DNA of 20,076 nucleotides, taken from assembly GCA_001563875.1 (NCBI GenBank), contig LKMN01000012.1:1-20076 (forward strand), in the 5' to 3' direction. The position numbers and the translations under genes are program-made. Numbering within the stretch: the first letter of the stretch is position 1; each line of letters opens with the position of its first letter. Shown one piece after another: positions 1,153 through 18,287 of the stretch. Source of the DNA: Nanohaloarchaea archaeon B1-Br10_U2g1 (GTDB lineage: Archaea; Nanohalarchaeota; Nanosalinia; Nanosalinales; Nanosalinaceae). A model generated the notes under the pieces. The model searched no databases. It saw only the letters and a list, made by a program, of their open reading frames with translations, and was not told the origin of the DNA.

Positions 1153-1157
1153 AAAAC

Positions 1158-1278: not shown

Positions 1279-1304
1279 ACGAACTATATGGAAAAACTGT
1301 TCTG

Positions 1305-2567
1305 ATGGACAACATAGGTAGAAGAGAGGTTTTGGTGGGCGGAGGAACAATAACTGCAGGAGCAGTTATACTGAATCAGCCTCCAAGTATTTTGGGAGAC
1401 GAGTTTGTTGAAGGAATTGATAGGGAGATCGCTGAAACAGAGGCGGAAAAGCTTAGAAACCAGCTGCTTCGTTCAGAAGACTTCCTCTTAAAACTGGATC
1501 TTCCCATACCTCAGAGAATCGAGGATTACGGATACAACACAGGAAAGAGTTCAGTGAACCCAAAGGTAACTGAGAAAGGTGTTAGAGTTACGGATAATTT
1601 TTATCTATCTTCTTTTGATGGAGAGATTTTACAGGGAGAGGTAGATGGCGAAAGCTACACTTATCACCACCTTGAGAGTGCTGAAAATGTGAACAACAAT
1701 TTCGACGAGTTGGATGATCTATTAGACGTTACAGATGATGGTTACAGCGAATTAGCCCTTTCCGGAGACGAGAGTTCTGGAAACCTAGGAAGATTAAACC
1801 AGACTCTAGAAGATTTTAACCGTATAAGGGCTTTTACAAGAGTGGAAGATCAGCAGCCTTTTCTGACCGAACAATCTATAGAAGAGTTAAAAGAGGTGAA
1901 CGAAGAGATAGAGAACTCTTTAACCGAGTATACAGAGTTTCTGAACAGTTATCAGGGCTCTCCTTCTCAGATATACGAAAGCGCCACCTCTCTTGTTCGG
2001 CAGCTGGAAACAGCAGAGACATCAACACATCGCAGAATCCCTTTAATAGGTGTTGTAACCGGTGAAGAAGAGATTCACAACCTTCTATCTCTAGAGGAGA
2101 GAAATAATCTCTTAGAAGGTGAAGGAGGATACGAGGGTATCGGCTTAAAATCTACTCAAGAAAGATCTGAAGATCTAGTCTTAGATGCTACTCTAACAGC
2201 CGGAAAGGCCTCAGTAATCCACAAGGTTATAGATGACGCTGTCAGGTACGCAGAGGAGAACAACAGGATATACAGCTCTCCAGAACAGAATCAGGAACAG
2301 TCCTCCGGTAAAGGTTATAGAGACGGTCTTGATGAAGAGTCTCAAGAAGTAGTTGAAACCTATTTTTCCGATGCAATGTTTGAGACTGACAGATTTAATA
2401 AGGAAGAAGTTTATCTGGAAGACGGAACACCGGCGAAGATCGGTGTTGAAGGTTATGAGAACGATCTTAGGCTGACTGAAGAGAACAGTTTCTCCCGTAG
2501 TGAGACAGAATGGCTGAAAGAAAACGAGAATCAGTTGGAAACAGTTTTTGAAGAAATATTAAAATAG
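1305..2567 (+). CDS. Acidic, largely helical hypothetical protein with Tat-like N-terminus
   Basis: 420-aa ORF; MDNI-GRREVL-VGGGTITAGAVIL; central coiled-coil-like stretch (EQSIEELKEVNEEIENSLTEY); no catalytic motif recognised. Confidence 0.85.
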   Translation: MDNIGRREVLVGGGTITAGAVILNQPPSILGDEFVEGIDREIAETEAEKLRNQLLRSEDFLLKLDLPIPQRIEDYGYNTGKSSVNPKVTEKGVRVTDNFYLSSFDGEILQGEVDGESYTYHHLESAENVNNNFDELDDLLDVTDDGYSELALSGDESSGNLGRLNQTLEDFNRIRAFTRVEDQQPFLTEQSIEELKEVNEEIENSLTEYTEFLNSYQGSPSQIYESATSLVRQLETAETSTHRRIPLIGVVTGEEEIHNLLSLEERNNLLEGEGGYEGIGLKSTQERSEDLVLDATLTAGKASVIHKVIDDAVRYAEENNRIYSSPEQNQEQSSGKGYRDGLDEESQEVVETYFSDAMFETDRFNKEEVYLEDGTPAKIGVEGYENDLRLTEENSFSRSETEWLKENENQLETVFEEILK

Positions 2568-2579
2568 AGGATGGAGGTG

Positions 2580-3785
2580 TTACTCCATCTCATCTACGAT
2601 ATCTCTAAGCTCTCTTAGAGAGTCGTAGGATTCTCCGGTTATTTCTGATGCGGAGTCAAGCACTCTGTTACGTAGAGCTTCTGTGTTGTACTCGTCTCCT
2701 TCTTCCGTGTAAGAAGGTTCAACTAGTGCATCATATACCCCTTGTAGGTCTCTTGTTTCTATTTGTGCCGGAGATGATAGTGCTTTTACGACAGACTCAT
2801 GGTCGGTTACAGCATCTTCAATCTCGTCAATTTCATCTAGTGCTGCAGCTGCATAAGCTAGGCCTGTCTCTCTTCTGGCTTCGTACTGTCCTTGCTGGTC
2901 TTGGTTGATGCTTGCTTTTTCACTGGAAGACTGTACTGAGAACTCATCGAACTTCTGCTGTTGTAGTTCTAAATCTCTCAGAACTCTTAGACTTTGTCTT
3001 AATTCCTTGTAGTTTTCGCTTACTACGTTTCCAGCTTCTGAAGCAAATTCGCTATAGACCTCTTGGATTTCATCTCTTCTTACTGTTCTCTCTGCTGCAC
3101 GTTCCTGCTTACGATTTGCAACTTGTGTTAGTCTTTCTTCTAGATTGTTTATGTCGCTTTGAACTTCTTCTCTTTCGCTGTCGTAACTGTTTTCTACAGC
3201 TCTTCTTTCATAAGACTCTAGACTTCCAGGAGTCTGTCCTTCTGCAAAGTCTTCTTCGTCCATATCTTCTATCTGGTTGAGGATCTTCTCTTTAGCAGCT
3301 TCTTCTTCTTGATCAAGAGCGTGTATCTCTTCCTCGTACTCTTGGATTTCTTCGTTGAGCTCGTCCATTATTCCTCTGAATTTACGGACTGTTCCTGTAA
3401 GACCTTCGATCTGCTCTGATTGGTGTTCTGCATAATCTCTTACTCCTAGCTCTCCATCGTATGTTAGCTCTTCTACCAGTTCTTCTGCTGACGTTTCAAG
3501 ACCTAGTTCCCATTCTTCAGTCTCAGGGACGTCTTCTCTAAGTTCTTCGTACTGCTCTGTTACTGTATCTGTTTCTGTCTGTCCTCTTTCTTCCCATTCT
3601 TCTATAGTTCTGTTAGCTGTTTTCTGCCTTTCCAGCTGTGTTTTTAGTGTGTCTTCGACTATTTCTGTTAGTCCTTTGGATTTGGCTGTTGGGTTCTCTC
3701 CTGTTGTGGAAACTGTTGTAGTTTCCTGTGTTTCGGAGCCTTCTCCGTAGTTCCGTTCGAATGATTCTTCTCCATTGTTTGTCAT
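2580..3785 (-). CDS. Acidic long coiled-coil hypothetical protein, probably cytoplasmic
   Basis: 401-aa ORF; heptad-rich stretches (IMDELNEEIQEYEEEIHALDQEEEAAKEKI; EREEVQSDINNLEERLTQVANRKQE); SD AGGTGA at 3800-3795; no signal peptide, TM helix or Walker A. Confidence 0.85.
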   Translation of the reverse strand: MTNNGEESFERNYGEGSETQETTTVSTTGENPTAKSKGLTEIVEDTLKTQLERQKTANRTIEEWEERGQTETDTVTEQYEELREDVPETEEWELGLETSAEELVEELTYDGELGVRDYAEHQSEQIEGLTGTVRKFRGIMDELNEEIQEYEEEIHALDQEEEAAKEKILNQIEDMDEEDFAEGQTPGSLESYERRAVENSYDSEREEVQSDINNLEERLTQVANRKQERAAERTVRRDEIQEVYSEFASEAGNVVSENYKELRQSLRVLRDLELQQQKFDEFSVQSSSEKASINQDQQGQYEARRETGLAYAAAALDEIDEIEDAVTDHESVVKALSSPAQIETRDLQGVYDALVEPSYTEEGDEYNTEALRNRVLDSASEITGESYDSLRELRDIVDEME

Positions 3786-3831
3786 TTGATTGATTCACCT
3801 AGTTACAGTTCTGCTTATGATACGAGCAACA

Positions 3832-3880
3832 TTATATATGTTTTTATTCGGCAGTAAGTAAAAGCCAAAACATATTTAAG
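3832..3880. promoter_or_regulatory. Back-to-back divergent BRE/TATA promoters
   Basis: Minus strand AAAACA-TATATAA (3844-3832) and plus strand AAAACA-TATTTAAG (3867-3880); together they form a perfect 9-bp inverted repeat ATATGTTTT (3836-3844) / AAAACATAT (3867-3875). Confidence 0.65.
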
Positions 3881-3917
3881 TTTTGTATCACCTTTTAGTC
3901 ACAACAGGGTGCGAGAT

Positions 3918-4898
3918 ATGAACAACAATATAGAGGACAACCGATGGAACCGGATGGTAGGAGAAAAAGAGATGGTAGCCGCAGCAGTCAAACTAGGCGC
4001 AGTACATGAGTCGATAAAGCTGCCTCTCAAACTTAATCCCGACCTAAACCCCGAGCAAGAACAGTTCCTCGAAGAACACCACGACTTTACCACAAACTTC
4101 TTCGAAGAGGAAGCAGGAAGAATAGATGTCGAGTCATGGAGACCAAATCTGTACGACGACAGCGAAACGGTGGACGACCCTTCTGTAGACGATAGATACG
4201 ATATCGACAAAACTTATGGAGCAGAAGACAGACACAGGTTAGCCCAAGAAATATTCAGTCACGCCGATGCAGCAGCTGAGAGAAGAGACGAACTATACCT
4301 CCAGACACTCGGACACAACAACCATAGAGACCTTGATGTAAACCTAACAGACGAGAACATCGAAAAGTTTGTAACCGAGATCCAAGACGTGATAGAACAC
4401 CAAGGAATAGAAGAAGACTATATAGACACAAAGTTCAGAGAACTAAAAGAATACAACAGCTCACGGTTCAACCAGCTGGAAGAACTGTCTGAAAACTACT
4501 TCAACAGTTTAATTGAAACTATAGATGAAGAAACACTGGATTCAAAAGAGATCTCATACGCCGTAGGAACAGCTATAGATAATCACACAGACATACTAGA
4601 TGAAAGCCAGGTATACGAACAAGTTACAAACGCTATAGAAAACTACGACTTTACAACAAGCGGCCCAGGCTATGAACAAACAGTTAACGCAGTTTTAGAA
4701 GGAATAGAAAGTTCAAATATAGCAACAGAAGCAGATATCCAAGAATTAAGAAGATATATCGGATCAGAACACGAAGACAGGAGTAGAGAACATCAGGAAA
4801 TACTTCAAGAGGTTGAAGGATTAAGAGGAGACCTCTATGAAGACTACGAACCAGAAGGATGGCTTGAAAGAATAGGAGACTACTTTACACGAGGTTAA
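3918..4898 (+). CDS. Acidic alpha-helical hypothetical protein with amphipathic C-terminal tail
   Basis: ORF-track 3909..4898; ATG 3918 preferred because GGGTG (3907-3911) is an SD-like site at normal spacing; ends EGWLERIGDYFTRG; no signal peptide. Confidence 0.85.
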   Translation: MNNNIEDNRWNRMVGEKEMVAAAVKLGAVHESIKLPLKLNPDLNPEQEQFLEEHHDFTTNFFEEEAGRIDVESWRPNLYDDSETVDDPSVDDRYDIDKTYGAEDRHRLAQEIFSHADAAAERRDELYLQTLGHNNHRDLDVNLTDENIEKFVTEIQDVIEHQGIEEDYIDTKFRELKEYNSSRFNQLEELSENYFNSLIETIDEETLDSKEISYAVGTAIDNHTDILDESQVYEQVTNAIENYDFTTSGPGYEQTVNAVLEGIESSNIATEADIQELRRYIGSEHEDRSREHQEILQEVEGLRGDLYEDYEPEGWLERIGDYFTRG

Positions 4899-4903
4899 CA
4901 ACA

Positions 4904-5404
4904 ATGAGCAAAAAACAACCAAAGTTCATGGACAGAAGAACAGCAAACAAAGCAATAGGCGCAGGCATACTGACAGCACTAGGTCTCGGTGCCTACTCAA
5001 CAGCAGGAAGCATACTTGCCTCAAGAAGGCCTGAACCAGAACCAGCTCCAGAACCAGAGGTACTTAACTACGAAGATATTCCGCAAGACAGTTTCGCAGA
5101 TGTCTACGAAGAACTTAGCGGAGATACAGAAGTAGACCATGAAGAGCTTTTGGACGAAAGAAGGTTTGAAAGACGTACAGACGGCGACACCGGAACCGGA
5201 GAGATAGTTTCTATAGATTATAGGGTCAGCCTTGACGAGGATTATAGAGGTGCTGACTCAAGAGTAAGATTTACTCTGGAGTACGAGGATGATACCGACA
5301 CACAGAGCTGGAGAGATATAGACGATGAAACTATGAGAGCTGTTGACGAGGCCTTCAAAAATCTTTATGGAGAAGAACAGTTTGATGACCGTTACAGGGT
5401 TTAA
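4904..5404 (+). CDS. Small acidic membrane-anchored or exported protein with twin-arginine-like N-terminus and Pro-Glu linker
   Basis: 166 aa; MDRRTANK-AIGAGILTALGLGAY; PEPEPAPEPE linker (about 5030-5059); SD GAGGT at 4891-4895; 5 bp after the previous stop. Alternative start ATG 4928. Confidence 0.85.
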   Translation: MSKKQPKFMDRRTANKAIGAGILTALGLGAYSTAGSILASRRPEPEPAPEPEVLNYEDIPQDSFADVYEELSGDTEVDHEELLDERRFERRTDGDTGTGEIVSIDYRVSLDEDYRGADSRVRFTLEYEDDTDTQSWRDIDDETMRAVDEAFKNLYGEEQFDDRYRV

Positions 5405-5407: not shown

Positions 5408-8398
5408 ATGCTCAAAACCAAAATCACGCTTTTTATAGCTGCGGTATTAATTTTAACTTCTTCTGCGGCAGCAGCACCTATAATAGAAGAATTTAATATG
5501 GATCCTGAATCCCCGGAGAAGGGAGAAGAGTTCACAGTAACCATTACTGCAGAAGATACTAGAGACGAAGTTATGGAGATAGGTCTTGAATCCGTAGACG
5601 AAACTCCTTCCAACCGGGACACTAGTTCAGAGTACCGTTTCTGTGGAGATGTTTCCTGTACTGAAGAATGGGACATAGTTTTCGATGAGGACGGAGAATA
5701 CGAGCTAATGGCTGAAGCTGTAAACTACAGAGATGAATCTGAAAGACAGTTCAAAACTGTTGTTGTCGACACAGATCTTGAGCCTATAGAACTAAGTCTA
5801 GATGAACCTGGAGAGAACGCAGACAACCTAGATTTAAGACCTGATTTCTCCTGGTCTGTCTCAGGAGGGGAAGGAGATACGGTATCAGACTTCTATCTGA
5901 AAGAGAAGAGCTTCGAAGATGAACTACCTTGGACCGATCCGGATTTCTCAGAAGATGATACCGGAACCTCTTTCAGCCTTGACGAAGACCTTGATTACGA
6001 TACCGAGTACGTATGGGGAGTAGAGGTCACGGATGAAGAGGACCAGTCCGCAACAGAAAGCAGAAAGTTCACAACTAAGGAGGAGCCGGAAGCAGAGATA
6101 AATGCAGAGTTCAGTTTCGACCCTGAAGATCCTGTAGTAGATGAAGAAATTACTTTTGATGCATCAGACTCTGAAGCTGACAACGATATAGTAGAGTATA
6201 CCTGGGACTTTGACGACAACACTGAAACAACCACAACCAGCGAAACAGTCGACTATAGTTACGAAGACGAGGGAAGCTACGATGTTTCACTAGAGGTTGA
6301 GGACGAAGAAGGTAACACCGATTCAACAGAAAAAACAGTAGAGGTTGAAAAGCCTGAACCTGAGTGCGGTGTCTCAAGCGGTACCGTCGGAGATCTGAAT
6401 CTAGAAGAGAACACTATATACAGAGGAGATCATACAGAAGCCTCAATAGAGGTAGAAAACACCGGTGCTGAGCAAGACGTCAAAGTAGAGATAACAGCTG
6501 ACGGAGAGTTATTCAGTAGAACGACGAAAAGTATAGATGAGGGTTCTTCTGAAAGATTTTCAACCAAAGTGTCTCCTGAAGAAGACAGTACAGTGAGAGC
6601 AGAAGTGTTCACTGTCGGAGATCCTTGTGGGGATAGAGACATAACCACCAGATCAGATACACTTAAGGTTCTTACCCCTATTGTTGACGAGAAAGGACAT
6701 CTCAAGGTAGAGGTTGAGGACAGAGACAGCAACAGTCTAGAAGATGCGCGTGTAGAGGTTGAGAACTCTGAATCCAAAACAGGCTTCACCGACAGCGACG
6801 GAGCCGTAGAGTTCAAACTTGAAGCCGGCAGATACTACGTAGATGTCTCGAAACCAGGTTACCGTGCAGAGGAGAAACCTGTAAATATTAGGGAAGATGA
6901 GAAAGAGAGCCTTAGATTCACTTTAGAAGAAACCAGAGATAAGAGTCGTTTCAATGCTATAGTGAGAGACAGGGCGACAGACAGCAGAGTTGAAGATGCA
7001 GAAGTCCTACTAGAGAACAGTGAAAGTTACAAAGAAGAAACAGATAGACGCGGCAGAGCTTCATTCGATATCAAACCCGACAGCTACGATGTTACAGTAT
7101 CCAAGGAAAACTACAACATCACGACAGATGAGATAGAAGTAGAGAAAGGTGACGAGAAAACAAGAAACTACTACCTAACCGATGAGGAAAAATTCAAAGG
7201 TCCTTACATAAAGGACATTGATTCACCTGAAAAAGTCTGTAAAGGAGATACTCTAGAAGCAGATGTAGAGATGGAGAATCGAGGTGATCGAAACGAAACA
7301 GTAAGCTTAACGGGAACAGGTCTTGGAATTGCAACAGCCACAAACAGTTTCCCTATTGATGCCGACCAGACCAGAACTGAAACATTGAGATTTACAAAAG
7401 TCGAAGGGGACGGAGAAGAGGAGTTCAGCATAACGCTGAGAAACAGTAAAACAGACAGAGTTAACAGCACAGTAAATGTAGAAGACTGTATTACAGACAA
7501 AAAAGATAGAAAAGAAGAAATAAGTGATTTGACGGCAGAATTGGAACCTAGAGAGATTGTAGAAGGAGATACCACTAGAGTTAGCGGTTACGTTAGAGGT
7601 GTCAGAGGAAGCACTTCCGTAGAGATAGATGTTGAGGGTCAAGACAGTATAAACATCGCTACAGACAGAGACGGATACTACAGTACATATATCCGGCCGG
7701 AGAGGGTTGGGAAACAGTCAGTAACAGTCTCAGCAGGTGAGAAATCTATCTCTAGATCCTTAGAAGTGCTACCTACCTCCCGTGTCAGTTCAGTAACAGG
7801 ACCTAGAACTGTTTTCGAAGGGGATGAATTTGAGATATGTGCGGACGTATCGTCTCAGGTAACACCAAAAGTCACATTTGAGAGAAACGAACGTGTGCTT
7901 GAAACACGTAACGACGCGGGAGAGCTGTGTTTCGAAGATACTGCAAAGGATCCCGGAACACATGTATACAAAGTCAACTCTTTCGTGCATAGCCAAGCTA
8001 GCAGCGGTTCAACAGAGGTAGAGGTTTTAGAGAGGCGAAGCGATGCGGAGACTTTCCCTGACAGGTTTGCAAGTGTAAGAAGCGGGGAGGGACTTGTGAA
8101 AGTTGATCTATACAACAACGAGAATCAGCAGAAAACTTACGATCTAGAGATAGATGGTATAGATGATAGGTGGGTTACACAGAGCACTAAAGAAGTTATC
8201 TTGAACCCTGGTGAACCTAAGACGGTCTACTTCTACTTCACTCCTAGAGCTGAAGGAGAGTTTAGACCTGTGATCAACGTTTTCAAGGAAGGGGAGAAGA
8301 TGTACGAGGAAGAGATAATTATGGAGATTGGTGGACGTGATAGACCTGAAAGACTGACCTTTAGACAGCGTCTGTCACGCCTCATCTCCTTTATTTAG
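5408..8398 (+). CDS. Large secreted multidomain surface protein (Ig-like, FN3-like, PKD, CARDB-like, two carboxypeptidase-regulatory-like domains); putative adhesin
   Basis: 996 aa; Sec signal MLKTKITLFIAAVLILTSSAAA; FN3-like PDFSW...LDYDTEYVWGVEV...FTT (about 5780-6080); PKD ITFDASDS...YTWDFDD...YSYEDEGSYDVSLEVED (about 6098-6350); two V-x-D...VEDAxV...TDxxG...YxVxVSKxxY repeats (about 6695-7180). Confidence 0.85.
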   Translation: MLKTKITLFIAAVLILTSSAAAAPIIEEFNMDPESPEKGEEFTVTITAEDTRDEVMEIGLESVDETPSNRDTSSEYRFCGDVSCTEEWDIVFDEDGEYELMAEAVNYRDESERQFKTVVVDTDLEPIELSLDEPGENADNLDLRPDFSWSVSGGEGDTVSDFYLKEKSFEDELPWTDPDFSEDDTGTSFSLDEDLDYDTEYVWGVEVTDEEDQSATESRKFTTKEEPEAEINAEFSFDPEDPVVDEEITFDASDSEADNDIVEYTWDFDDNTETTTTSETVDYSYEDEGSYDVSLEVEDEEGNTDSTEKTVEVEKPEPECGVSSGTVGDLNLEENTIYRGDHTEASIEVENTGAEQDVKVEITADGELFSRTTKSIDEGSSERFSTKVSPEEDSTVRAEVFTVGDPCGDRDITTRSDTLKVLTPIVDEKGHLKVEVEDRDSNSLEDARVEVENSESKTGFTDSDGAVEFKLEAGRYYVDVSKPGYRAEEKPVNIREDEKESLRFTLEETRDKSRFNAIVRDRATDSRVEDAEVLLENSESYKEETDRRGRASFDIKPDSYDVTVSKENYNITTDEIEVEKGDEKTRNYYLTDEEKFKGPYIKDIDSPEKVCKGDTLEADVEMENRGDRNETVSLTGTGLGIATATNSFPIDADQTRTETLRFTKVEGDGEEEFSITLRNSKTDRVNSTVNVEDCITDKKDRKEEISDLTAELEPREIVEGDTTRVSGYVRGVRGSTSVEIDVEGQDSINIATDRDGYYSTYIRPERVGKQSVTVSAGEKSISRSLEVLPTSRVSSVTGPRTVFEGDEFEICADVSSQVTPKVTFERNERVLETRNDAGELCFEDTAKDPGTHVYKVNSFVHSQASSGSTEVEVLERRSDAETFPDRFASVRSGEGLVKVDLYNNENQQKTYDLEIDGIDDRWVTQSTKEVILNPGEPKTVYFYFTPRAEGEFRPVINVFKEGEKMYEEEIIMEIGGRDRPERLTFRQRLSRLISFI

Positions 8399-8438: not shown

Positions 8439-8476
8439 GATATATAAAACTAAAACATAGTGTTATTCATAGGTGG
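8439..8476 (+). promoter_or_regulatory. TATA box and SD for the 8487 gene
   Basis: TATATAAA at 8441-8448; AGGTGG at 8471-8476; ATG at 8487. Confidence 0.55.
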
Positions 8477-8486
8477 CAATACTAAA

Positions 8487-10232
8487 ATGAACGATTTCAA
8501 CAAATACTTAACGGTTACAGCACTAATACTGGCCTTCATCGGTTTAGCATCCGCAAGCGCCGCAGAACTAACAATTTTCCCTGAAGAATCATCAACGAAA
8601 ATTGATTCTTTCACATCTTACCAGGTCGAGGTTGAAAACGTCGGACCTGTAGAAGATGTTTATGAGATGAGCTCCAACAGCCCTGAGGAGATAACTATCG
8701 CTCCTACAAGAGTGCCTGAAGAAGGTAATCTTGAACCGGGAGAGACAAAGACAGTAAACGTATGGTACAACCCTCGTGAAACAGCATCGGAGGGTAGAGA
8801 GTCTTTCGAAATAACAGCCACCTCCAGAGCATCAGGAGAGAGATACACGACAACCGGCCACGTAAACATAATCAAAGACCACCAGGTAAGTCTTAACTCG
8901 GCAGAAACTTCTAGAACTGTATGTCTAGACGAAGATGCGACATACGAGATAGAAGTAGGAAATGATGGAACACAGAAAGACGAGTACCAGTTAGAAACAG
9001 AGTTTGGAGAGCTTTCAGATGAACGAATCGAGCTCTACCCTGATGAGACAAGAACCGTGACAGTGACCGGATCTTCAGAGGAAGAAGCGACAGAGAACTT
9101 CAACGTAAGAGCTTCATCTAGAACCGCTAGCTACGATACAGAAAGTATTGGATTAGAGTTTGAGGCGGAAACATGCTGGGATTCAGAGATCTCTATGACG
9201 CCTGAACAGCAAGATGTAGCTGCTTTCACAGAGGCAGAATATGAGGTAACTGTAAGGAACACAGGAACAAGAACAGATGAGTTCGTGCTCTCAGCAAGCG
9301 AAGGCGAATTAGAGGAGTCTGTGCTTGAGATACCTGGAGGAGATTCTGCAACGACTGGCCTTACAGTAACTCCTGAAGAACTTGGAACAAAGGATGTAGA
9401 AGTAACAGCTGAATCAAACGTAGAGTCGACAGGAACAGCAGAGATGGATGTCTATAACGGAATGGATCTGGATATAAGATTCCCTGGAGATACAACAGCA
9501 TGTGAAAAAGAGATCGCTGAAGCAGAAGTAACCATAGAGAATACAGGAGAAGCTGAAGAAACTTACAACCTTGAAGAGTCAGAAGGAGAGCTTTCAGAGT
9601 CCGAAGTGACTCTAAGCCCTGACGAAGAGGAGACCGTGGAACTAGTCATTGATACAGAAGACTACGACCTCGGAGAACACGAATTAGAAGTTACAGGTAC
9701 AGCGGCAAGCTTTGGAGAGCCCGTTGAAACCGCTACAACTGAGTTAGAAGTAGAGAACTGCTGGGATCTAGAGCTAAACGTAGTTCCGGAAGTGGCAAGC
9801 GCAGGTGAAAACCGAAGCACCGTATACAGAATCGATATAGAGAACCCTGGAACACGGACGAACACTTATGAGATAACCCATAACGGTCCGGAATGGTTGT
9901 CAATCACTCCTAGAGAACAAGAAGTAGCTCCAGGACAGCAGGAAATATCCTACATGTATGCCGGAGTGCCATTCGAGAAGAAAGGAGAACTCGAGATAAC
10001 AGTAACCGGAACAGGAACAGATATACAGAAGTCTACAACAGCCAAACTGCTAATGGATAAGGATCTAGAAGAAGCAATTGAGGACGATAGTGAAAGAGCG
10101 ACAGGAAGGTTCACACAGAGAGCAGGAGATCTAGTAGATTCGGTGACTAGCCTTGAAGGACTAGGAAGAATAGGATTAGCAATAGTTGTAGGACTCGGTA
10201 TAACCGCCCTTATTATCTACCGTGAATGGTAG
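8487..10232 (+). CDS. Type I membrane surface protein with five tandem Ig-like (COG1470/NPCBM-associated/CARDB-like) repeats
   Basis: ORF-track 8460..10232; ATG 8487 preferred (SD, signal peptide MNDFNKYLTVTALILAFIGLASASA); five (Y/A)-x-V/I-x-V/I-x-N-x-G-x3-(D/E/N)-x-(Y/F) repeats; C-terminal TM IGLAIVVGLGITALIIY then REW. Confidence 0.85.
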   Translation: MNDFNKYLTVTALILAFIGLASASAAELTIFPEESSTKIDSFTSYQVEVENVGPVEDVYEMSSNSPEEITIAPTRVPEEGNLEPGETKTVNVWYNPRETASEGRESFEITATSRASGERYTTTGHVNIIKDHQVSLNSAETSRTVCLDEDATYEIEVGNDGTQKDEYQLETEFGELSDERIELYPDETRTVTVTGSSEEEATENFNVRASSRTASYDTESIGLEFEAETCWDSEISMTPEQQDVAAFTEAEYEVTVRNTGTRTDEFVLSASEGELEESVLEIPGGDSATTGLTVTPEELGTKDVEVTAESNVESTGTAEMDVYNGMDLDIRFPGDTTACEKEIAEAEVTIENTGEAEETYNLEESEGELSESEVTLSPDEEETVELVIDTEDYDLGEHELEVTGTAASFGEPVETATTELEVENCWDLELNVVPEVASAGENRSTVYRIDIENPGTRTNTYEITHNGPEWLSITPREQEVAPGQQEISYMYAGVPFEKKGELEITVTGTGTDIQKSTTAKLLMDKDLEEAIEDDSERATGRFTQRAGDLVDSVTSLEGLGRIGLAIVVGLGITALIIYREW

Positions 10233-10472: not shown

Positions 10473-11456
10473 TTATCTTCCTTCAACGGTCACAGTTGTC
10501 TGTTCCTCTATATTGTATCCATAAGATGCAACCAGGTTGATGTTCGATGTTATTTCCTCCTGATCTATCATGTCAGGTGAAGACCATTCAAAACATGCAC
10601 GTGCTTCATCATTTACAAGTTCTGTCTCAATTTTGGCGCCCTCTTCAGTGTCTTCTCCTGTCTCTCCGCTACCTGGTTCAAAGACTATATCACCTACATC
10701 CTCTGCTTCGATTTCTACGATGTCTTCATAATCTGAATCTACGCTGTATACATCTTCCGTATCTTCATGATAGGATTCATCGTGGAGGAACGGTGTTCCT
10801 GGCCCTTCATCTCTGACCATTACACAGAAATCATCTGTATCATCTCCGTCGTCGTCATACTGTACCTTGGGAGTAGTTCCTAAGACCTCAAGCTGTATAG
10901 GGCCCGAATCGTTGTCGGTTTCTGCGGAAGTTTCTGTAGTATCCGAGTCTAAATACCTGTCTTCAGACATCATCGTCATCTGTGTTCCTGCCTGAGTTTC
11001 ATACCTATAGAACACGTCTAGGTTGAATGTTTCTGTAGGAGCTCTTCCTTCACCATAGCTAGGAGCAGTAAGCGTTATGCTCTCTGTGCTGGGAATAGGG
11101 CTTTCCCCGTCACCTGGAGAGTTAGCATCACCCATAGTGAATGTTCTATCTGCTCTTGAGTCCATAGCTTCCTCACTAGAGCTTCTCCATGCACTGTCCT
11201 GATCGGAGCTGCTGGCGAACGTTGGTCCAAAAAGTCTTACAGCTATATCTTCAGCGTCAGCTTGTCCCTCGTTTTCTATCTCAATATCTAAGGAAAGTGT
11301 AGTATCACTAGGTATTGAGGCCTGAGACGGAGAGAAATCGGTTACTGTTACAGGATTTGTCTGGGTTTCTGCACTATCTCCGTTGTCTACACATCCTGAT
11401 GCTATGACAACAAGCGATATAAGAACTAGTAGTATCTTGTTTCGTTCGAACCGCAT
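10473..11456 (-). CDS. Lipoprotein, two Ig-like beta-sandwich domains (paralog 3 of tandem array)
   Basis: 327 aa; signal MRFERNKILLVLISLVVIASG-C; motifs IEIENEG, FYRYET, SGPIQLEV, ASYGY shared with neighbours; abuts the upstream stop with 0-bp gap. Confidence 0.85.
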   Translation of the reverse strand: MRFERNKILLVLISLVVIASGCVDNGDSAETQTNPVTVTDFSPSQASIPSDTTLSLDIEIENEGQADAEDIAVRLFGPTFASSSDQDSAWRSSSEEAMDSRADRTFTMGDANSPGDGESPIPSTESITLTAPSYGEGRAPTETFNLDVFYRYETQAGTQMTMMSEDRYLDSDTTETSAETDNDSGPIQLEVLGTTPKVQYDDDGDDTDDFCVMVRDEGPGTPFLHDESYHEDTEDVYSVDSDYEDIVEIEAEDVGDIVFEPGSGETGEDTEEGAKIETELVNDEARACFEWSSPDMIDQEEITSNINLVASYGYNIEEQTTVTVEGR

Positions 11457-12233
11457 TCAGTTTACAACTCCGATGTTCACTGATGGGGACTGGATGTATT
11501 TATAAGATATGTCGAAGAACACGTTTTCGACTCTTTCCTCGCCTGTATCGGGCTCCACCTGGCAGGTATAACTTGTATCTTGTCCTTCAAGCACCTCTTG
11601 TTCGCCTTCACAGTCAGAGAAAATATCGCTCTCAAACGACATTTCATAGTCTGAACCTACTCTTCCTTCCCCAACATCCTGTATGTCTATGTGGGCAGTG
11701 GTTCCCTGATCGGATATAGGCTGAGTCATCGTAATATCTACCTGTATCTCACTGTTGGTGAAAGAAGATGTCTGATCCTCTGTACGATCTATCTCCTCAT
11801 GCGGCATTATCTGGACTTGGTAAGGCTCTAAATTTTCAAGGACGGATCTATATTGGAGATCTAAGCTTACAGGAACATTCCTTCTTTCAAACCCTTCAAC
11901 ATCTTCCTCGTTAGCTTCTATATTCCACGAGCACTCCATCTGCGATGGACTTTCCTGCGAACCTTCAGGAACCTCATCCGCTTCCGGTGTACAGCTTCTT
12001 TCAGAGACCTCTAAAAAGTCTGTATTAAATAGCGACATACTTTCGATCGGAAGATCTTTATCTTGATAGTTTTCAAGCGTTAACTCGATTCTGGCTTGTT
12101 GATCCGGTATTATCTCTTGATCGGTTGCAGAGAACTCGGATACTTGAAGACCCTGGGCTTCACCGCCATTATCCAGACAGCCTGAAGACAAGACAATTAA
12201 ACCTAGGAAGAGAGCAATCCTTAGGTTATCCAC
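11457..12233 (-). CDS. Lipoprotein, two Ig-like beta-sandwich domains (paralog 2)
   Basis: 258 aa; GTG start overlapping the upstream gene by 8 nt; signal MDNLRIALFLGLIVLSSG-C; motifs LTLENY, CSWNI, LQYRS, NSEIQVDI, ISYKY. Confidence 0.85.
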   Translation of the reverse strand: MDNLRIALFLGLIVLSSGCLDNGGEAQGLQVSEFSATDQEIIPDQQARIELTLENYQDKDLPIESMSLFNTDFLEVSERSCTPEADEVPEGSQESPSQMECSWNIEANEEDVEGFERRNVPVSLDLQYRSVLENLEPYQVQIMPHEEIDRTEDQTSSFTNSEIQVDITMTQPISDQGTTAHIDIQDVGEGRVGSDYEMSFESDIFSDCEGEQEVLEGQDTSYTCQVEPDTGEERVENVFFDISYKYIQSPSVNIGVVN

Positions 12234-13134
12234 GCGGAGACACCTGTATAGTCCTCGATCCTGCGTTTTTTACATACTCGTAGTCCGCTTCTATAGATAC
12301 ATCGAATATCTCTGCAGGACCATCAAGCTCATCAGGAACCTCTAAATCACATACAATGACCTCTGACTGTCCCTCATGCATGTTGACCCCTTCATCCACA
12401 GGATCGTTGCATATATCTTCAACCTCTTCTCCTCCCAAAAGTTCGTCAGAGATATCTATATCCATACTGTCTTGGTCTATATTTACTACACCTGCCTCAT
12501 ATCCTTCCTCTACTTCTTGGTTAACGAACTGCATTTCAACCGTTATGGTGCTATCCTCGCCCTGTACATAGGTGTTAGGCTCCTGAGCAGCTCCAGATAA
12601 CGTGTTTATAGACATATACATAGGCCCCGATGAGGACCTTGACTCAAGTGCTTCCGCACCTTCAACAGAAGAGTCTTCCTTGACCTCTATCTGCTGAAAA
12701 GCTTGGACGCTATAATTGAACGGTAGCCTGAAGCTTAGATCACAACTTATATCGTACAAGGGTACTTCTCCAGACTGTTCTAAGTTCCAATCCATCCTTA
12801 TACTGTCTCCATTATCTAAGCTATAGACACCTTCCGATACTTCAGAGTTAGGAGGAGTATTATACGAAAATTCCTCTAGGTCGAAGTCATCTTGACATCG
12901 ATCGATTAGTATATTTTCTCCATCTTCTTCTACTTGTAGATCCGCCGGTATATTACCCATGTTCGCGGCCTCTGTTACCACTCGAGAAGTATCTCCTTCA
13001 TGCACCTGCGAAGGATTGACTGAAAGCTCTCTAACCTCCACAGCCTCAGGTCCTTCGCTTGATGCCCCATTCAAGCATCCGGCCGCAAAGACGACAAGAA
13101 ACAACAGAGTTAAAACTTGGTTTTTATCATGCAT
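12226..13134 (-). CDS. Lipoprotein, two Ig-like beta-sandwich domains (paralog 1, first gene of operon)
   Basis: 302 aa; signal MHDKNQVLTLLFLVVFAAG-C; motifs AANMG, MDWNL, PFNYS, SSGPMYMSI, ADYEY. Confidence 0.85.
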   Translation of the reverse strand: MHDKNQVLTLLFLVVFAAGCLNGASSEGPEAVEVRELSVNPSQVHEGDTSRVVTEAANMGNIPADLQVEEDGENILIDRCQDDFDLEEFSYNTPPNSEVSEGVYSLDNGDSIRMDWNLEQSGEVPLYDISCDLSFRLPFNYSVQAFQQIEVKEDSSVEGAEALESRSSSGPMYMSINTLSGAAQEPNTYVQGEDSTITVEMQFVNQEVEEGYEAGVVNIDQDSMDIDISDELLGGEEVEDICNDPVDEGVNMHEGQSEVIVCDLEVPDELDGPAEIFDVSIEADYEYVKNAGSRTIQVSPRG

Positions 13135-13139
13135 ATATA

Positions 13140-13940
13140 ATGAATTTCTCTAGCAGCGTTAAAAACTTTCTATACGAATACTTCTGGCTGCCTGTAGCAG
13201 ATCCAACTGTCTACTACAACCCCTACAACACTGTTATTTACGCCCTACTTTTCGGATTAGCTGCTATCTACCTAGGTTATCCTTTGCTTAAGAAGTTAGG
13301 TCTTAATCTAGATAAGAAATTCTTCATAGGTATAGGCCCTTATGTTTTCTTAGGTGGGTTTGCGAGGTCGCTTAGAGATATACAGGTGGTAGACACCATC
13401 CTACTTGAAACGCCTTTTATCTACATTATAATGTTCTTGTTCACAGTTACAATGCTCCTAACCTCCTTAAAGATTCAGGAGCTCAAGGAAGTTTCTTACC
13501 ATAAACCTTTCTCTGCTGCAGGTGTTTTAGCAATAGCTTTGACGCTGCCTTTCTACAGCATAGAAAACTTTAGTATCTTAATAGGTTTTGTAGTTGTTTC
13601 CCTTTCATGGATCGCGCTAGGAATTTTAATACTCCGACAACTAAAGCCTGAGCTACTGAACTATACGTTTACGGTTCCTATAGCTGCACACTTCTTTGAT
13701 GCAACCTCTACATACGTAGGAATAACTTTAGCAGGAGCAGAAGAGAAACATGTCCTTGCAGACTCTGTTATGCAGTTAGTAGGGCCTTCAGGAATATTTC
13801 TAGTTAAGGCAGGAATTATCATACCTGTGGTCTGGATTATATACAACGACTTTGAAGGAGAGAAGAGGAACTACTACATGTTCTTGATAGCGATGCTAGG
13901 TTTTGCGATAACCACCAGGAACATGTTATCTATACTCTAG
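13140..13940 (+). CDS. DUF63 (COG1967) family polytopic membrane protein; AliA/AliB-like candidate lipoprotein lipidation enzyme
   Basis: Motifs YNPYNTVIYA, PYVFLGGFARSLRD, LLETPFIY, AHFFDATSTYVGI...EEKHVL, LGFAITTRNML recognised as DUF63; about 8 hydrophobic segments. ATG 13140 preferred because 13059 would overlap the divergent lipoprotein gene. Link of DUF63 to haloarchaeal AliA/AliB is recalled knowledge, not verified here. Confidence 0.8.
   Translation: MNFSSSVKNFLYEYFWLPVADPTVYYNPYNTVIYALLFGLAAIYLGYPLLKKLGLNLDKKFFIGIGPYVFLGGFARSLRDIQVVDTILLETPFIYIIMFLFTVTMLLTSLKIQELKEVSYHKPFSAAGVLAIALTLPFYSIENFSILIGFVVVSLSWIALGILILRQLKPELLNYTFTVPIAAHFFDATSTYVGITLAGAEEKHVLADSVMQLVGPSGIFLVKAGIIIPVVWIIYNDFEGEKRNYYMFLIAMLGFAITTRNMLSIL
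13159..13170 (-). promoter_or_regulatory. BRE/TATA promoter for a leaderless lipoprotein operon, embedded in the DUF63 coding sequence
   Basis: Minus strand GAAAG-TTTTTAA; TATA is 25-31 nt upstream of ATG 13134. Confidence 0.6.
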
Positions 13941-13941
13941 T

Positions 13942-16101
13942 TTATACGCCAGGTATGAAGCTCCATACACTTCCTCCTTCAGACTCTTCTTCCTCATCTA
14001 CAGTAACTAGTTCCGGGCGGACACCGGTTATATTGATAGCTTGGCCTGGAGATTGTTGTGCTGTAATAATATCTTGAGGCTCCAACGCAATTATGCCTTC
14101 GTAATCGTCTATATTGCTCCATGCCTCACCGCTGTTCTGTCTAGAGTAGTAAGTGAAGAAGTCTTGTTCTTCAATAGTGGACTGTTCTAGCTGAAGAGCC
14201 ATCTCTCCTCTTCTAAGCTCTAGATCTAAGTTGCTGTCAGGTGGAGATACTTGACCTCCTTCCGGATCTATACCACAGCCATCAGCAGCGTCTACACCCT
14301 CACAGGTCGCTCTCTGTACTTGAGGATCGTTCTCATCACTTATCTCATCTTGGTCGGCCTCCTCAAGGTTAAGAGGCACAACTATAGGGCAGTTATGCTC
14401 GCTACAAAGACTGTTGTAGGCCTGAAAATTACCTATACCTTCTTCAAGACGTGTAGTATAGTTTGCAGCAACATGCATCGTCATGGTCTCTCCTGCAGGA
14501 TTGACCTGGTGGTTGTCTTCAAGATTGAAGTTACATCCGAAAAGAGACGGTCTAACATCTCTATCAAACCAGTGGTCTGATGGAAGACCTCTATCTTCAT
14601 CCTCTCCCGCCATTAGATTAGCTTTCTGATCTTCAGAAAGCTCCAATGTATCATAACTTCCATCCGCGTCGGTCGAAGTAGGTACAAAGGCGCAGCTCTG
14701 GGCGTTTTCAAGGTCCTGCTCATAGTTGTTTCCAAAGTCAACACATCCTCCATCATCAGCAGCAATACATGTCCGAGAAGGAGGAGTTATCTCTAAGTCC
14801 TCTACTTGGTAAGAGACCTCACTTTCTCCGGTCTCCAAAGTTGTCTCAACAGATACAGGTTGCTGAGATTCTCCAGTAGCCTCATCAAATGTTGCAGGCG
14901 AGCTAACACCCATTGCGGCCTGTACAGGTGTGTCTGCAGTCACAGAGCTTATCTGTCTAATATCTATCTGTTCGGACTGTCTTGCTTGTTCAGACATTGC
15001 TTCAAAATTAAGTGTGGACTGTGAAAAGTAGTCGTACCGTATATCTAGGTTTGCAGACAACATTTCGCGTGCACCAGGCTGTATCATGCCACAGTTCTTA
15101 AGAGTAAGTTCCTCGTGTTCTACAAAACCTTGAGCCGCAGAGGAACCCGGTATTAGGTCGTTTCCTGTGCCTAAGCCATCCTCTTCAATATCGAAGCCGT
15201 CAACAGGCGTCCATCCGGTATCACACTGGACTTCACTGCCGTCATCTATAGTGACCCGGTAACTTACATTCATAGCCTCTATACCTCTAAGACCGTGACG
15301 TGTATTGTATATATCGTATGAGATAGGTATTGTCTGATCCGGTTCTGAGAAAGCTACGTCTATTGAGTCTCCTGCACCCACATCAAAGCTTCTGATATTT
15401 AGACCGAACTCCCTTCCAACGCTTTCACTTCCCGGTCTTTCCGTCTGGTTAAGCTGGTGTTCTCTTAGACAGTGAGGTCCTTCCCCTACACAGGACAGAA
15501 ACCCTAAAGCCTGAGATCCCTGGTAACTTATCTCTCCCGTTATAGGCTGGACAGCCTGACTCATACCTATTCTGTCAAACGTCCCTCCAATATAGTAGTC
15601 AGTATACTGCACTAGGACGTTGTTTTCCGAGACTCCTGCAATATTAGCTAGTCCCGGAATTACTGCTAGAAACATTATCAAGACCATAAGAACTCCTGCA
15701 ACAGCTAATAAGCTTCTTCCTTCAGAATTTTGGCCTCTTCTGGATTTATCGGCTCTCCTATCAATCTCCATTCTCCTTTTTTCTTCTTCAGAAGGAGCAA
15801 GCTTGTTTAGAACCGGTATAGGAGATATAATCGCACAGAAAACCATATCAACAACATCAACATCCTTGTTTATCACAATACTAACTAATCCCAGTATAAA
15901 AGAAGGTAAACCAATCACAGCACCTACACCTGTCAGAGATGTTCCTAATCTTCTAGCCCACCTCTTCTTGTTTATAAGATGTTTTCTTATCTGTTTTTTA
16001 CGGCCTTGTACAGCATTACTTATCTTTGAACGGATCCAGCCAGTAAGTCTCTGTATTGGGCCGCGGTCAGGTTCATACCGAAGATCTTCATAGTTATCCA
16101 T
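13942..16101 (-). CDS. Large Cys-rich membrane-anchored surface protein containing the same two-domain module as the three lipoproteins
   Basis: 719 aa; basic N-terminus, 2-3 hydrophobic segments in the first ~155 aa, acidic ectodomain with 12 Cys; motifs GLNIRSF, ISYDIYN, LDIRYDYFS, ADTPVQAAM, GCNFNL, VAANYT; SD-like GAGGTGA at 16123-16117. Confidence 0.85.
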   Translation of the reverse strand: MDNYEDLRYEPDRGPIQRLTGWIRSKISNAVQGRKKQIRKHLINKKRWARRLGTSLTGVGAVIGLPSFILGLVSIVINKDVDVVDMVFCAIISPIPVLNKLAPSEEEKRRMEIDRRADKSRRGQNSEGRSLLAVAGVLMVLIMFLAVIPGLANIAGVSENNVLVQYTDYYIGGTFDRIGMSQAVQPITGEISYQGSQALGFLSCVGEGPHCLREHQLNQTERPGSESVGREFGLNIRSFDVGAGDSIDVAFSEPDQTIPISYDIYNTRHGLRGIEAMNVSYRVTIDDGSEVQCDTGWTPVDGFDIEEDGLGTGNDLIPGSSAAQGFVEHEELTLKNCGMIQPGAREMLSANLDIRYDYFSQSTLNFEAMSEQARQSEQIDIRQISSVTADTPVQAAMGVSSPATFDEATGESQQPVSVETTLETGESEVSYQVEDLEITPPSRTCIAADDGGCVDFGNNYEQDLENAQSCAFVPTSTDADGSYDTLELSEDQKANLMAGEDEDRGLPSDHWFDRDVRPSLFGCNFNLEDNHQVNPAGETMTMHVAANYTTRLEEGIGNFQAYNSLCSEHNCPIVVPLNLEEADQDEISDENDPQVQRATCEGVDAADGCGIDPEGGQVSPPDSNLDLELRRGEMALQLEQSTIEEQDFFTYYSRQNSGEAWSNIDDYEGIIALEPQDIITAQQSPGQAINITGVRPELVTVDEEEESEGGSVWSFIPGV

Positions 16102-16112
16102 GCCTGATATAG

Positions 16113-17246
16113 TTATTCACCTCTTGAGGAAGTTATTCTAAAGTCTTCAAGCACATAGGCTCCGTGGCTCTTAATTTCTAGTTCGTTGTCTTCCTGAAGA
16201 ACATCCTCCGATACGTTGTGCTGATTAAATCCGGTTTCCGGCTCTATAGAATGTGTTTCTTCATTTAATGTGATGTTTAAATTCCTATTTGTTGGTAGCA
16301 GGCTTCTGTAATCGAAAGAGATAATCTCTTGCGTGTCCTGGCGGTCTGCAAAGTTTAACTGCTCTCCAGATAATTCAAACTCCTCATTGATCTCCTCTCT
16401 TTGAACGGCTTCCACGCTTCTAACTGTTATATCTGCGTTTTCTATATGGTACTCTGCAGGCCTGCTTGTTGAAAACTCTATAGTATTAGATCCTGCGTTT
16501 AAGCTTTCCAATGGTATTTCTGCTTCTTCCCCTGTTGTACGTGCTTGTTCTCTGTTATAGATTTCATCGTCGTTCACAGTTATCTCTAGTGGTTCTTCTC
16601 TTACCGCTTCTTGTATATCAAAGGTTAGTTCCGACTCTACAAAGTCTTCTATCTCAAAACTGTATACTCTAAAGTTATCTCTATGATCTGAGAAGGTCCT
16701 ATCACTTACTCTAAGTTCAACATCTTCTAAAACGTATTCTGAACCAGAAAATATTCCGTCCCGGTTGACACCGAGTTCAAACTCGTTTACTCCATGCCTA
16801 AGATGCTCTTCGTCTATCTCGATCTCCGGATTCGATGTCGATACAAGGTGTTCGTCAAACACTTTTTCGCCGTTGACTTTCAGGTATACCGCTCCCGAGC
16901 CTTCTCTACCGAGAACTTCGAACTCCAGTTTGCCGTCTTGTGGCTGTGTGGCGTTGTAATCAAAATAAAGTTTTTGCCCTCTGAAAGGTCCTAAACGATC
17001 GCTTATACTCGAGCGGCTTCTTTCGAATGCGAGCACGTCTCCTCGCCCGTGTCCTACGTTGAAGTCTCCTAGGCTTATGGTTCTATGATCGTGTTCTTCA
17101 CTTCCTACAGTACCGAAATCTTTCTCATATAGAACCATTTCATCCTCTTCTTCAACTGTTATACCATCTGTTGCCTCATCATAGATAAAAATGAGGCCAA
17201 AAACCGTTAGGCCTGCGACTAAAACAACGCCAAACTTTTCGTCCAT
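16113..17246 (-). CDS. Membrane-anchored protein with three repeated beta-sandwich (jelly-roll-like) domains
   Basis: 377 aa; N-terminal TM FGVVLVAGLTVFGLIFIY; repeats VYLKVNG...LRHGVNEFEL...YVLEDV, LEITVND...LNAGSNTIEF...YHIENA, LNITLNE...LQEDNELEI...YVLEDF; 11 bp upstream of the 719-aa gene. Confidence 0.8.
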   Translation of the reverse strand: MDEKFGVVLVAGLTVFGLIFIYDEATDGITVEEEDEMVLYEKDFGTVGSEEHDHRTISLGDFNVGHGRGDVLAFERSRSSISDRLGPFRGQKLYFDYNATQPQDGKLEFEVLGREGSGAVYLKVNGEKVFDEHLVSTSNPEIEIDEEHLRHGVNEFELGVNRDGIFSGSEYVLEDVELRVSDRTFSDHRDNFRVYSFEIEDFVESELTFDIQEAVREEPLEITVNDDEIYNREQARTTGEEAEIPLESLNAGSNTIEFSTSRPAEYHIENADITVRSVEAVQREEINEEFELSGEQLNFADRQDTQEIISFDYRSLLPTNRNLNITLNEETHSIEPETGFNQHNVSEDVLQEDNELEIKSHGAYVLEDFRITSSRGE

Positions 17247-17269
17247 AATAATGTGGTGTTGTTTCGAGG

Positions 17270-17278
17270 TTTTTATTT
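17270..17278. promoter_or_regulatory. TATA element for pelota, possibly bidirectional
   Basis: TTTTTATTT lies about 23-32 nt from both divergent start codons (17246 minus, 17301 plus) in a 54-bp gap. Confidence 0.45.
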
Positions 17279-17300
17279 GTAGGTAGCAGTTAAACAGTTT

Positions 17301-18287
17301 ATGAAGCTGTTAAAAACCGATAGAAACGACGGATATGCCTGTATAAGAATTGAAAACAAAGACGATCTCTGGCATCTAAAAGACTTTATACAGGAAGGAG
17401 ACCATGTTAGAACATTAACACAGCGAACTAAACTGGATGGAAGAGAGAAAAAGACCTGCAGACTTACTTTAAAAGCAGAGAAGACAGAATACACTGAGGA
17501 AAGGTTGAGAGTTACCGGAGAAATCACAGAAGGTCATGAGGATGTTGAACTAGGCTACCACACGTTTAACTTGGAGCCAGATAACGAGTTCGAGATCCAG
17601 ACAGAGTTCACAGAAGAACGATGGAACAGACTTCAAGAGATGGAAGACAAAAGATCTTACCAGGTACTTTTCTGTCTTGTAGAGAAAGGTGGCGCCGACT
17701 TCTTCCTCGTAGAGGAGTCCGGTATAAAAGACCTCTCAAAGATAGAGGAGAACATACCAGGAAAGATGTACAAAGATCAGGTATCAGGCGAAGAATTCCA
17801 TAAACAGGTTAGAGCCGTTCTGGAAAGATCAGAAGATGTCGACGATATTGTGCTATGCGGTCCTGGATTCCAGAAGAACAAAGTATATGACACACTGTCC
17901 GAAGATCTTAAAAGCAAAACTTTCGTACAGAACACATCTGTCACCGGCAAAACAGGCCTTCACGAAGCATTTAAACGTGGTGCGCTCGACAAAGTCGTAG
18001 AGAACTCACGTATAGGAGAAGAATCTGAAGCTGTAGACAGATTTTTGGACGCTTTAAGAGAAGAAGATAAAGCTAGTTACGGCGAACCTGTAAAACAACT
18101 TGCAGACTTAGGAGCAGTTAAAAAACTCCTAATTACTGCAGAAAAACATAGAAAAGAGCCGGGGATATCTAGAACCGTAGAACAACAGGGAGGAGAGACA
18201 CAGATAGTGCATACTGATCACGAGGCAGGCGAAAAACTTGAGAAACTAGGTGGTTTAGCGGCTATTCTACGATACTCTCCTCAGTAG
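17301..18287 (+). CDS. pelA: mRNA surveillance / ribosome rescue factor pelota (Dom34)
   Basis: 328 aa; ENKDDLWHL, RLRVTGEI, LGYHTFNL, IPGK, LCGPGF(Q)K (PGF motif), EAGEKLEKLGGLAAILRY; lacks the NIKS and GGQ motifs of aRF1. Confidence 0.95.
   Translation: MKLLKTDRNDGYACIRIENKDDLWHLKDFIQEGDHVRTLTQRTKLDGREKKTCRLTLKAEKTEYTEERLRVTGEITEGHEDVELGYHTFNLEPDNEFEIQTEFTEERWNRLQEMEDKRSYQVLFCLVEKGGADFFLVEESGIKDLSKIEENIPGKMYKDQVSGEEFHKQVRAVLERSEDVDDIVLCGPGFQKNKVYDTLSEDLKSKTFVQNTSVTGKTGLHEAFKRGALDKVVENSRIGEESEAVDRFLDALREEDKASYGEPVKQLADLGAVKKLLITAEKHRKEPGISRTVEQQGGETQIVHTDHEAGEKLEKLGGLAAILRYSPQ

Follow-up and report, generated by a model that had tools for sequence, protein, structure and literature searches.

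How DPANN archaea gain hold of their hosts and draw on them is still an open question, and for the majority of their conserved surface proteins no function has been assigned. The nearest published statement we found to the gene set described here concerns a family of murein-cutting archaeal proteins: in the text available from PMC8204110, large lytic-transglycosylase proteins of Woesearchaeota and Pacearchaeota are described together with a module of co-occurring unknown protein families, and attachment to bacterial walls is proposed, although the family is covered there without lipoproteins and without a five-gene module. A literature search, with supplementary tables outside its scope, found no description of the gene cluster itself. 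Here we analyse a stretch of 20,076 nucleotides from Nanohaloarchaea archaeon B1-Br10_U2g1 (assembly GCA_001563875.1, contig LKMN01000012.1, forward strand; hereafter the window), from a genome of 0.71 Mb that is 97% complete and encodes an acidic proteome, and in it six genes at positions 10473-17246, which encode three lipoproteins (lip327, lip258 and lip302), a large membrane protein (tm719), a three-repeat protein (rep377) and a polytopic membrane protein of the DUF63 family. We tentatively read these genes as one conserved cell-surface module whose products would form an outward-facing hetero-oligomeric platform, anchored by lipids and helices, for contact with an envelope or a partner. 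What is new is the conserved multi-protein set and not the folds of its domains.

The second system to which the locus can be compared is archaeal lipidation. In the retrieved text of PMC12462473, Haloferax volcanii needs AliA and its paralog AliB to attach archaeol to its lipobox proteins by a thioether bond, these two are the only lipidation components named, aliB genes are frequently found near predicted lipoproteins, and arCOG02177 is present in DPANN archaea; AliA is HVO_2859, a gene which appears as 'DUF63 family protein' in a table of PMC9426492. The DUF63 gene of the window (13140-13940, plus strand), embedded between tm719 and lip302 on the strand opposite to theirs, encodes a protein that matches PF01889 with 149.6 bits (E 2.8e-43) against a cut-off of 25, over profile positions 1-265 of 269, and is the sole PF01889 gene in the genome. 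Because HVO_2859 belongs to the DUF63 family and is AliA, the embedded protein is an AliA-family member, which agrees with the original prediction of an embedded putative lipidation enzyme. As with the AliA/AliB-dependent lipoproteins of H. volcanii (arCOG02177/02178, PF01889), lipobox surface proteins here stand beside a DUF63 polytopic gene. The window differs in that the enzyme gene lies inside a fixed module of several genes, two of which encode membrane partners that are not lipoproteins, and in that the client lipoproteins form a family restricted to small-genome archaea; the module offers natural, genetically linked clients for this recently found enzyme. AliA has two conserved arginines in its pocket, in whose place AliB has histidines. 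Across 18 nanohaloarchaeal DUF63 sequences, R260 and H184 are each present in 16, H204 in 13 and R76 in 11, which are only candidate positions for that pair.

On the minus strand, lip327 (10473-11456; 327 amino acids, lipobox IASGC with Cys22, signal and lipobox at about 11391-11456), lip258 (11457-12233; 258 amino acids, GTG start, lipobox LSSGC with Cys19) and lip302 (12226-13134; 302 amino acids, lipobox FAAGC with Cys20) form a translationally coupled series, with a gap of 0 bp and an overlap of 8 nt, respectively, and are full-length paralogs as judged by profile comparison. Pairwise BLAST returned only weak links, all among the lipoproteins. Profile-profile comparison with hhalign, performed on ortholog alignments from 20 related genomes, aligned lip327 over its full length with lip258 (99.2%, E 6e-20) and with lip302 (99.2%, E 1e-19), and lip258 likewise with lip302 (98.6%, E 1e-15). 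The lipoboxes were assigned by the pattern [LVI][ASTVI][GAS]C, lip258 having a Ser at -3, and their Gly-Cys is unchanged in all 63 members of the lipoprotein family. A crude heuristic lipobox scan gave some 6-8 lipobox open reading frames (ORFs) across the 0.71-Mb genome, 3 of them in this cluster.

The three copies are old. We built a maximum-likelihood tree of 82 sequences, namely the 63 family members and all 19 ORFs of sister families that were shorter than 420 amino acids and matched the profile with E <1e-10. It resolved three paralog clades with 95-99% support in the Shimodaira-Hasegawa-like approximate likelihood ratio test (SH-aLRT; 95% for the lip258 clade, 99% for the lip302 clade), and since sister-family members occur in each of them, the triplication is older than the split between the families and all copies have been retained. 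A homolog search returned close relatives only, unnamed or annotated as hypothetical apart from one evidently misnamed NusG, and a locus search with one narrow peptide pattern found 23 loci, 18 of them labelled Nanohaloarchaea, Nanohalarchaeota, Nanohalobium or Nanosalinarum and 5 'uncultured archaeon'. Relatives of the window's proteins that bear an organism name are Candidatus Nanohaloarchaea, and the ESM Atlas gave archaeal clusters with putative labels, mostly Aenigmatarchaeota or Methanobacteriota, which enter no argument here. Profiles A1, A2 and A3 matched nothing below E 0.008 among PDB sequences.

The membrane protein tm719 (13942-16101, minus strand, 719 amino acids) is well supported as a fourth paralog, with less certainty than the other three. 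Its Lys/Arg-rich, helical membrane region (residues 1-200, 15502-16101) is followed by a predicted pair of sandwiches homologous to those of the lipoproteins (residues 227-564, 14410-15423) and by a Cys-rich C-terminal region that belongs to no known family (residues 565-719, 13945-14409). The merged profile of the three lipoproteins (63 sequences) matched the tm719 profile (20 sequences) at 91.6% (E 8e-7, 253 columns), aligning lipoprotein residues 32-327 with tm719 residues 227-564 and placing in register the strand start, the x-N position, the Y-x-Y strand, the SGPI/DTPV linker, Cys residues and the last Y-x-Y strand. When the lipoprotein families were compared one by one, lip327 alone reached tm719 (87%, E 4e-6). 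All the strings listed in the original prediction as an ordered motif set shared by the four proteins are present in the translations, but the V/I-x-x-F-S start placed at the head of that set is broken in lip302 (VRELS) and in tm719 (IRSFD). Orthologs of tm719, found in 23 of the 24 genomes of the window's family, range from 692 to 998 amino acids, with one of 1815, around a conserved core; nine Cys residues are invariant among them, and Cys pairs are conserved in each ectodomain of the lipoproteins and of tm719. The membrane part is the least conserved, nothing besides Met1 being invariant before Cys204. Two conserved N-x-T sequons, N218-x-T220 and the ANYT at residues 546-549, make N-glycosylation of tm719 possible.

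AlphaFold2 models agree with a common two-domain unit. The lip327 model (mean predicted local distance difference test score, pLDDT, 91.2; predicted template modelling score 0.84) has two beta-sandwiches at about residues 36-164 and 180-325, and the tm719 model (pLDDT 69.9 overall, 70-92 over residues 200-700 and below 50 before Cys204) has two as well. In both models a hairpin of about 24 residues closes every sandwich, a short helix comes after the hairpin of the first, and the lists of the top 50 structural neighbours have 18 entries in common. The original prediction of four paralogs built on one two-domain unit is upheld by profiles and models together, the link to tm719 being the weaker part.

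The predicted folds are ordinary immunoglobulin (Ig)-like and CARDB-like sandwiches and nothing in the models points to a novel fold. Structural searches (Foldseek, VIA-align) returned common Ig-like sandwiches only, with Z 8-10 over about 100 residues, among them transglutaminase barrels, complement MG domains, glycosidase Ig domains, CARDB, RbmA and domain III of HAP2. The top Foldseek matches were MSCRAMM-type tandem-Ig adhesins and integrin legs (E 3e-7 to 1e-4), but with whole-protein TM-scores of 0.1-0.27 and a root-mean-square deviation of 14-30 Å, single sandwiches alone aligning well. Of the three-domain class II HAP2/fusexin fusogens, domain III, which is Ig-like, is the one domain to align (Z 8.0-9.3 over 101-110 residues), and many unrelated sandwiches score as high. 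Likeness to CARDB (PF07705) is seen in a V-x-V...N-x-G pattern in the first lipoprotein domain, in weak matches of 8 of the 63 lipoprotein members (best E 5.9e-5), in matches of the family profile to CARDB-repeat giants through positions 31-123 and in the alignment of structure 3idu (Z 7.5). No window protein matches CARDB at the Pfam threshold or at E ≤0.1, however, and in place of a string of repeats the proteins have a fixed pair of sandwiches with hairpins and either a lipobox or a polytopic anchor, so that they are CARDB-like and not members of the Pfam family. A confident assignment to a characterised family was one of the outcomes that the original prediction had named as speaking against it; no such assignment emerged, the domains being generic and the proteins falling into no family of Pfam, NCBIfam or PDB. 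Nor did Pfam and NCBIfam give anything above threshold for the five minus-strand proteins, in which, as had been proposed, no catalytic family is recognisable.

The remaining minus-strand gene, rep377 (16113-17246, 377 amino acids), ends 11 bp upstream of tm719, and this spacing, like those between the lipoprotein genes, is as originally given. Its product has an N-terminal hydrophobic anchor (residues 5-22, 17181-17234) and three mutually homologous beta-sandwich repeats (about 16701-17129, 16419-16700 and 16116-16418), the first matching the second at 98%, the second the third at 91% and the first the third at 73%, as expected of the three-repeat partner that had been predicted. Weak matches to a carbohydrate-binding-module-like family (PF14683) were obtained with 5 of 21 orthologs. 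The family shares a feature with archaeal class III signal peptide (type IV pilin-like) proteins, a class that includes non-filament surface proteins: a simple custom pattern for [KR][GA][QTS] before a hydrophobic helix counted this pilin-like N-terminus in 16 of the 30 homologs that come from beyond the phylum. By the same pattern it occurs in 0/20 members of the window's family and in 1/12 of the sister families, and rep377 of the window, which starts with MDEKFGVV (MDEKFGVVLVAGL), has no class III cleavage motif and no filament assembly genes nearby. Two kinds of N-terminus are seen in the rep377 family, K/R-G/A-Q with a helix ending in LYILF, and M-x-[DEN]-F followed by a hydrophobic residue, the window being of the second kind. 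A conserved YNATQP sequon (residues 97-102) is a possible site of N-glycosylation.

The locus is conserved throughout the Nanohaloarchaeota, where the module is single-copy. The gene order o120-HtrA-pelota-rep377-tm719-DUF63-lip302-lip258-lip327 was the same at all 20 loci from the window's family, with DUF63 inside the cluster in 17 of them, and the lipoprotein and rep377 profiles found members in 66 and 67 of the 70 genomes of the phylum, respectively. Among 12 loci from sister families, rep377 stands beside pelota in 11, lipoprotein-family ORFs are present in 8 and DUF63, at shifted positions, also in 8, while the position of tm719 is filled by other membrane proteins. The predicted clustering in relatives is borne out by the loci of both the window's family and its sisters. 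The genes for pelota and rep377 lie head to head (window 17246-17301), an arrangement shared by every one of the 20 window-family loci, by 11 of the 12 sister-family loci and by 22 of the 30 from outside the phylum, and no functional link between the two is evident.

Similar proteins in other DPANN genomes, which the original prediction had mentioned, were found by profile. Of 71 archaeal genomes from beyond the phylum, 11 gave a full-length match to the rep377 profile. A broader profile (26 sequences) matched 63 of 331, nearly always as one copy of 370-430 amino acids, and roughly one in five of the archaeal genomes sampled outside the Nanohaloarchaeota carries the module, again beside pelota. 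We fetched 30 of these rep377-family loci, on which all the outside-phylum locus counts rest. Of these, 22 have pelota as an adjacent gene, 21 continue with between one and four lipobox ORFs that match the nanohaloarchaeal profile, runs of at least three lipobox ORFs occur in about 10, and a large membrane protein usually lies between rep377 and the lipoproteins. Several of these membrane proteins are related to the lipoproteins: hhalign against the lipoprotein profile gave 94.7%, 94.6% and 86.8% for three of them and 61%, 19% and 11% for three others, and hmmsearch gave E-values of 1e-11 to 2e-4 in several lineages. A Pfam scan of 25 membrane proteins at the tm719 position, 23 of them from outside the phylum, found an SLT end in 2, a glucosaminidase end in 1, CarboxypepD_reg repeats in 1, DUF7895 in 1 and nothing in 20. 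The three murein-hydrolase-tailed proteins (L078:7625-9817, minus strand; L080:5948-7765, plus strand; L091:10321-12252, plus strand) carry SLT twice and glucosaminidase PF01832 once, above the Pfam cut-offs, and they are what the module shares with the published murein-cutting family, as far as the available text of that report goes; tm719 of the Nanohaloarchaeota carries no such domain. Most module-bearing genomes outside the phylum are of 0.5-1.6 Mb. Two are of 3.6-3.8 Mb (L095/G375 and G356); they too encode pelota, a member of the rep377 family and a pair of related lipoproteins, the module not being limited to tiny genomes.

Recurrence of the same set in many small-genome archaea suggests that the module is probably a core part of their cell surface. 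Judging from the sequences, we propose that the three lipoprotein precursors would be exported and that the adjacent AliA-family protein would attach archaeol to the lipobox Cys of each through a thioether bond. The lipid-anchored subunits, together with the helix-anchored tm719 and rep377, could then join into a hetero-oligomeric platform facing outward from the membrane. Its conserved sandwich core would be structural, and its working end would be the lineage-variable distal end of the membrane subunit. The nanohaloarchaeal platform would most likely hold or probe an envelope, either the cell's own surface layer or that of a haloarchaeal host. A platform engaged in transport or catalysis is unlikely, and a substrate-binding or transport role was dropped because there are no transporter genes in the window. 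Wall-cutting heads in other lineages, together with mostly small genomes, favour contact with the envelope of another cell. The original prediction of diverged paralogs in a hetero-oligomeric envelope structure is confirmed in what it observed and supported in part in how it interpreted it; the ring, pore collar or host-attachment apparatus that it suggested, and any signalling by the membrane subunit to the cytoplasm, are speculative.

Several results weigh against the proposed platform for envelope or partner contact, and they keep our preference for it tentative. A single profile comparison, at 92%, links tm719 to the lipoproteins; with the lipoprotein families taken one at a time the link is lost in two cases out of three, lip258 and lip302 giving under 3% with hhalign, and pairwise BLAST of tm719 against the lipoproteins found no match. 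No Pfam family, and thus no hydrolase domain, was found in any of 20 nanohaloarchaeal tm719 orthologs. Across 16 genomes from four sister families tm719 gave 1 weak match and was undetected in 15, and the proteins at its position in two of these families showed no similarity to tm719 or to the lipoproteins in two-sequence alignments. Outside the phylum, DUF63 is in or near the locus in only 5 of the 30 loci. The whole neighbourhood within the window's family, including pelota and HtrA, is syntenic, and synteny at such depth says little alone. Moreover, the folds are generic, and the products of adjacent surface-protein genes need not bind one another. Finally, rep377 is single-copy with a mean column identity of 53%, which fits a housekeeping role better than a host-specific one.

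This last point leads to the strongest rival, in which the same complex is a housekeeping envelope scaffold. It would tie the cell's own surface layer to the membrane, or set the distance between the two, and would have no role in contact with a partner. We rank it second, as possible but doubtful, behind contact with an envelope or partner. Strong conservation, a single copy and a fixed locus favour such a scaffold: rep377 is highly conserved, and the locus stays beside pelota across phyla, in 22 of the 30 outside-phylum loci. The module is present in the two genomes of 3.6-3.8 Mb, the nanohaloarchaeal members have no effector-like domain, and the neighbouring genes big996 and ig590 (described below) could encode surface-layer components. 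A regular S-layer-like surface has also been reported in a nanohaloarchaeon, in the text available from PMC7443923. The murein-hydrolase domains on 3 of the 25 membrane subunits are harder to accommodate in a scaffold, since they point outward, to bacterial walls. Archaea themselves lack walls of the bacterial type. The distal part of tm719 also varies in length and most module genomes outside the phylum are of 0.5-1.6 Mb, neither of which is in favour of a scaffold for the cell's own surface.

A more specific form of contact can be drawn from the loci outside the phylum, and we regard it as unlikely, if still worth stating. The window would then hold the nanohaloarchaeal form of a pelota-linked, five-gene, DPANN-type apparatus with which ectosymbionts might grip and open the envelopes of their hosts. 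One pilin-like protein of three sandwiches and one polytopic subunit would share a single platform with lipid-anchored paralogs, usually three in number. The distal head of the polytopic subunit would be exchangeable, a wall-cutting enzyme being carried for a bacterial partner, as the enzyme ends seen in some lineages could suggest, and a Cys-rich domain for a haloarchaeal one.

That the genes encode independent surface proteins, tandem duplicates of a CARDB-like lipoprotein which each act alone, for example as adhesins, and form no complex, seems improbable to us. The generic Ig-like folds, with tandem-Ig adhesins and integrin legs as top Foldseek matches, and the weak CARDB matches in 8 of 63 members would be expected in that case. 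Independent duplicates do not readily explain why all three old paralog clades have been kept since before the family split, why gene order is fixed with genes overlapping or abutting, or why, in distant lineages, the set is again accompanied by a large membrane protein and a member of the rep377 family. Still less probable is an accessory of a type IV filament, with rep377 as a large pilin-like protein and the set as a complex at the base or tip of a pilus or archaellum. The class-III-like motif in 16 of the 30 outside-phylum homologs is what speaks for a filament, but its count falls to 0/20 in the window's family and 1/12 in the sister families, and no ATPase, platform protein or prepilin peptidase was found by Pfam among the 16 window ORFs or among the listed ORFs of relatives, where no search was aimed at them. 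Finally, we give very little weight to lipoprotein-maturation machinery, in which the membrane proteins beside AliA would be missing lipidation partners such as a signal peptidase or sorting factor, for despite the tight linkage to the sole AliA-family gene, and although to our knowledge no archaeal lipoprotein signal peptidase is known, tm719 is conserved least in its membrane part, where pLDDT is below 50, and is undetected in most sister families, and AliA is absent from 25 of the 30 outside-phylum loci.

The boundaries of the embedded gene are tight on both sides. The ATG of DUF63 faces that of lip302, head to head, across 5 bp, and at the other end 1 bp separates the DUF63 stop from that of tm719; a start at TTG 13059 was set aside, the ATG at 13140 being likelier. 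The junction of the lip302 and DUF63 starts (window 13134-13140) reads CAT ATATA ATG, and TTAAAA-like boxes are found about 26 bp upstream of both starts, each within the opposite gene, an arrangement which suggests two leaderless transcripts with interleaved promoters.

Two further Ig-repeat surface proteins are encoded beside the module, and both genes are conserved as neighbours in 16 of the 20 loci of the window's family. The product of ig590 (8460-10232, plus strand) has a C-terminal membrane anchor and matches Pfam FixG_C and HYDIN-type Ig domains, and that of big996 (5408-8398) has PKD, CarboxypepD_reg and CARDB-like domains. From its place in the loci, ig590 may be a member of the module; at one locus outside the phylum (L083), a homolog of ig590 (E 6e-68) follows three lipoproteins.

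On the other side of the module, the genes for pelota and an HtrA-like protease are convergent and their 3' ends overlap by 26 nt (window 18262-18287). Positions 1-5404 of the window encode four or five strongly acidic proteins that match no family (one of at least 383 amino acids, the others of 420, 401, 329 and 166), several of which look coiled-coil-like by eye; the first of these has a start resembling a twin-arginine translocation (Tat) signal, RRNLLGGAAVAG.

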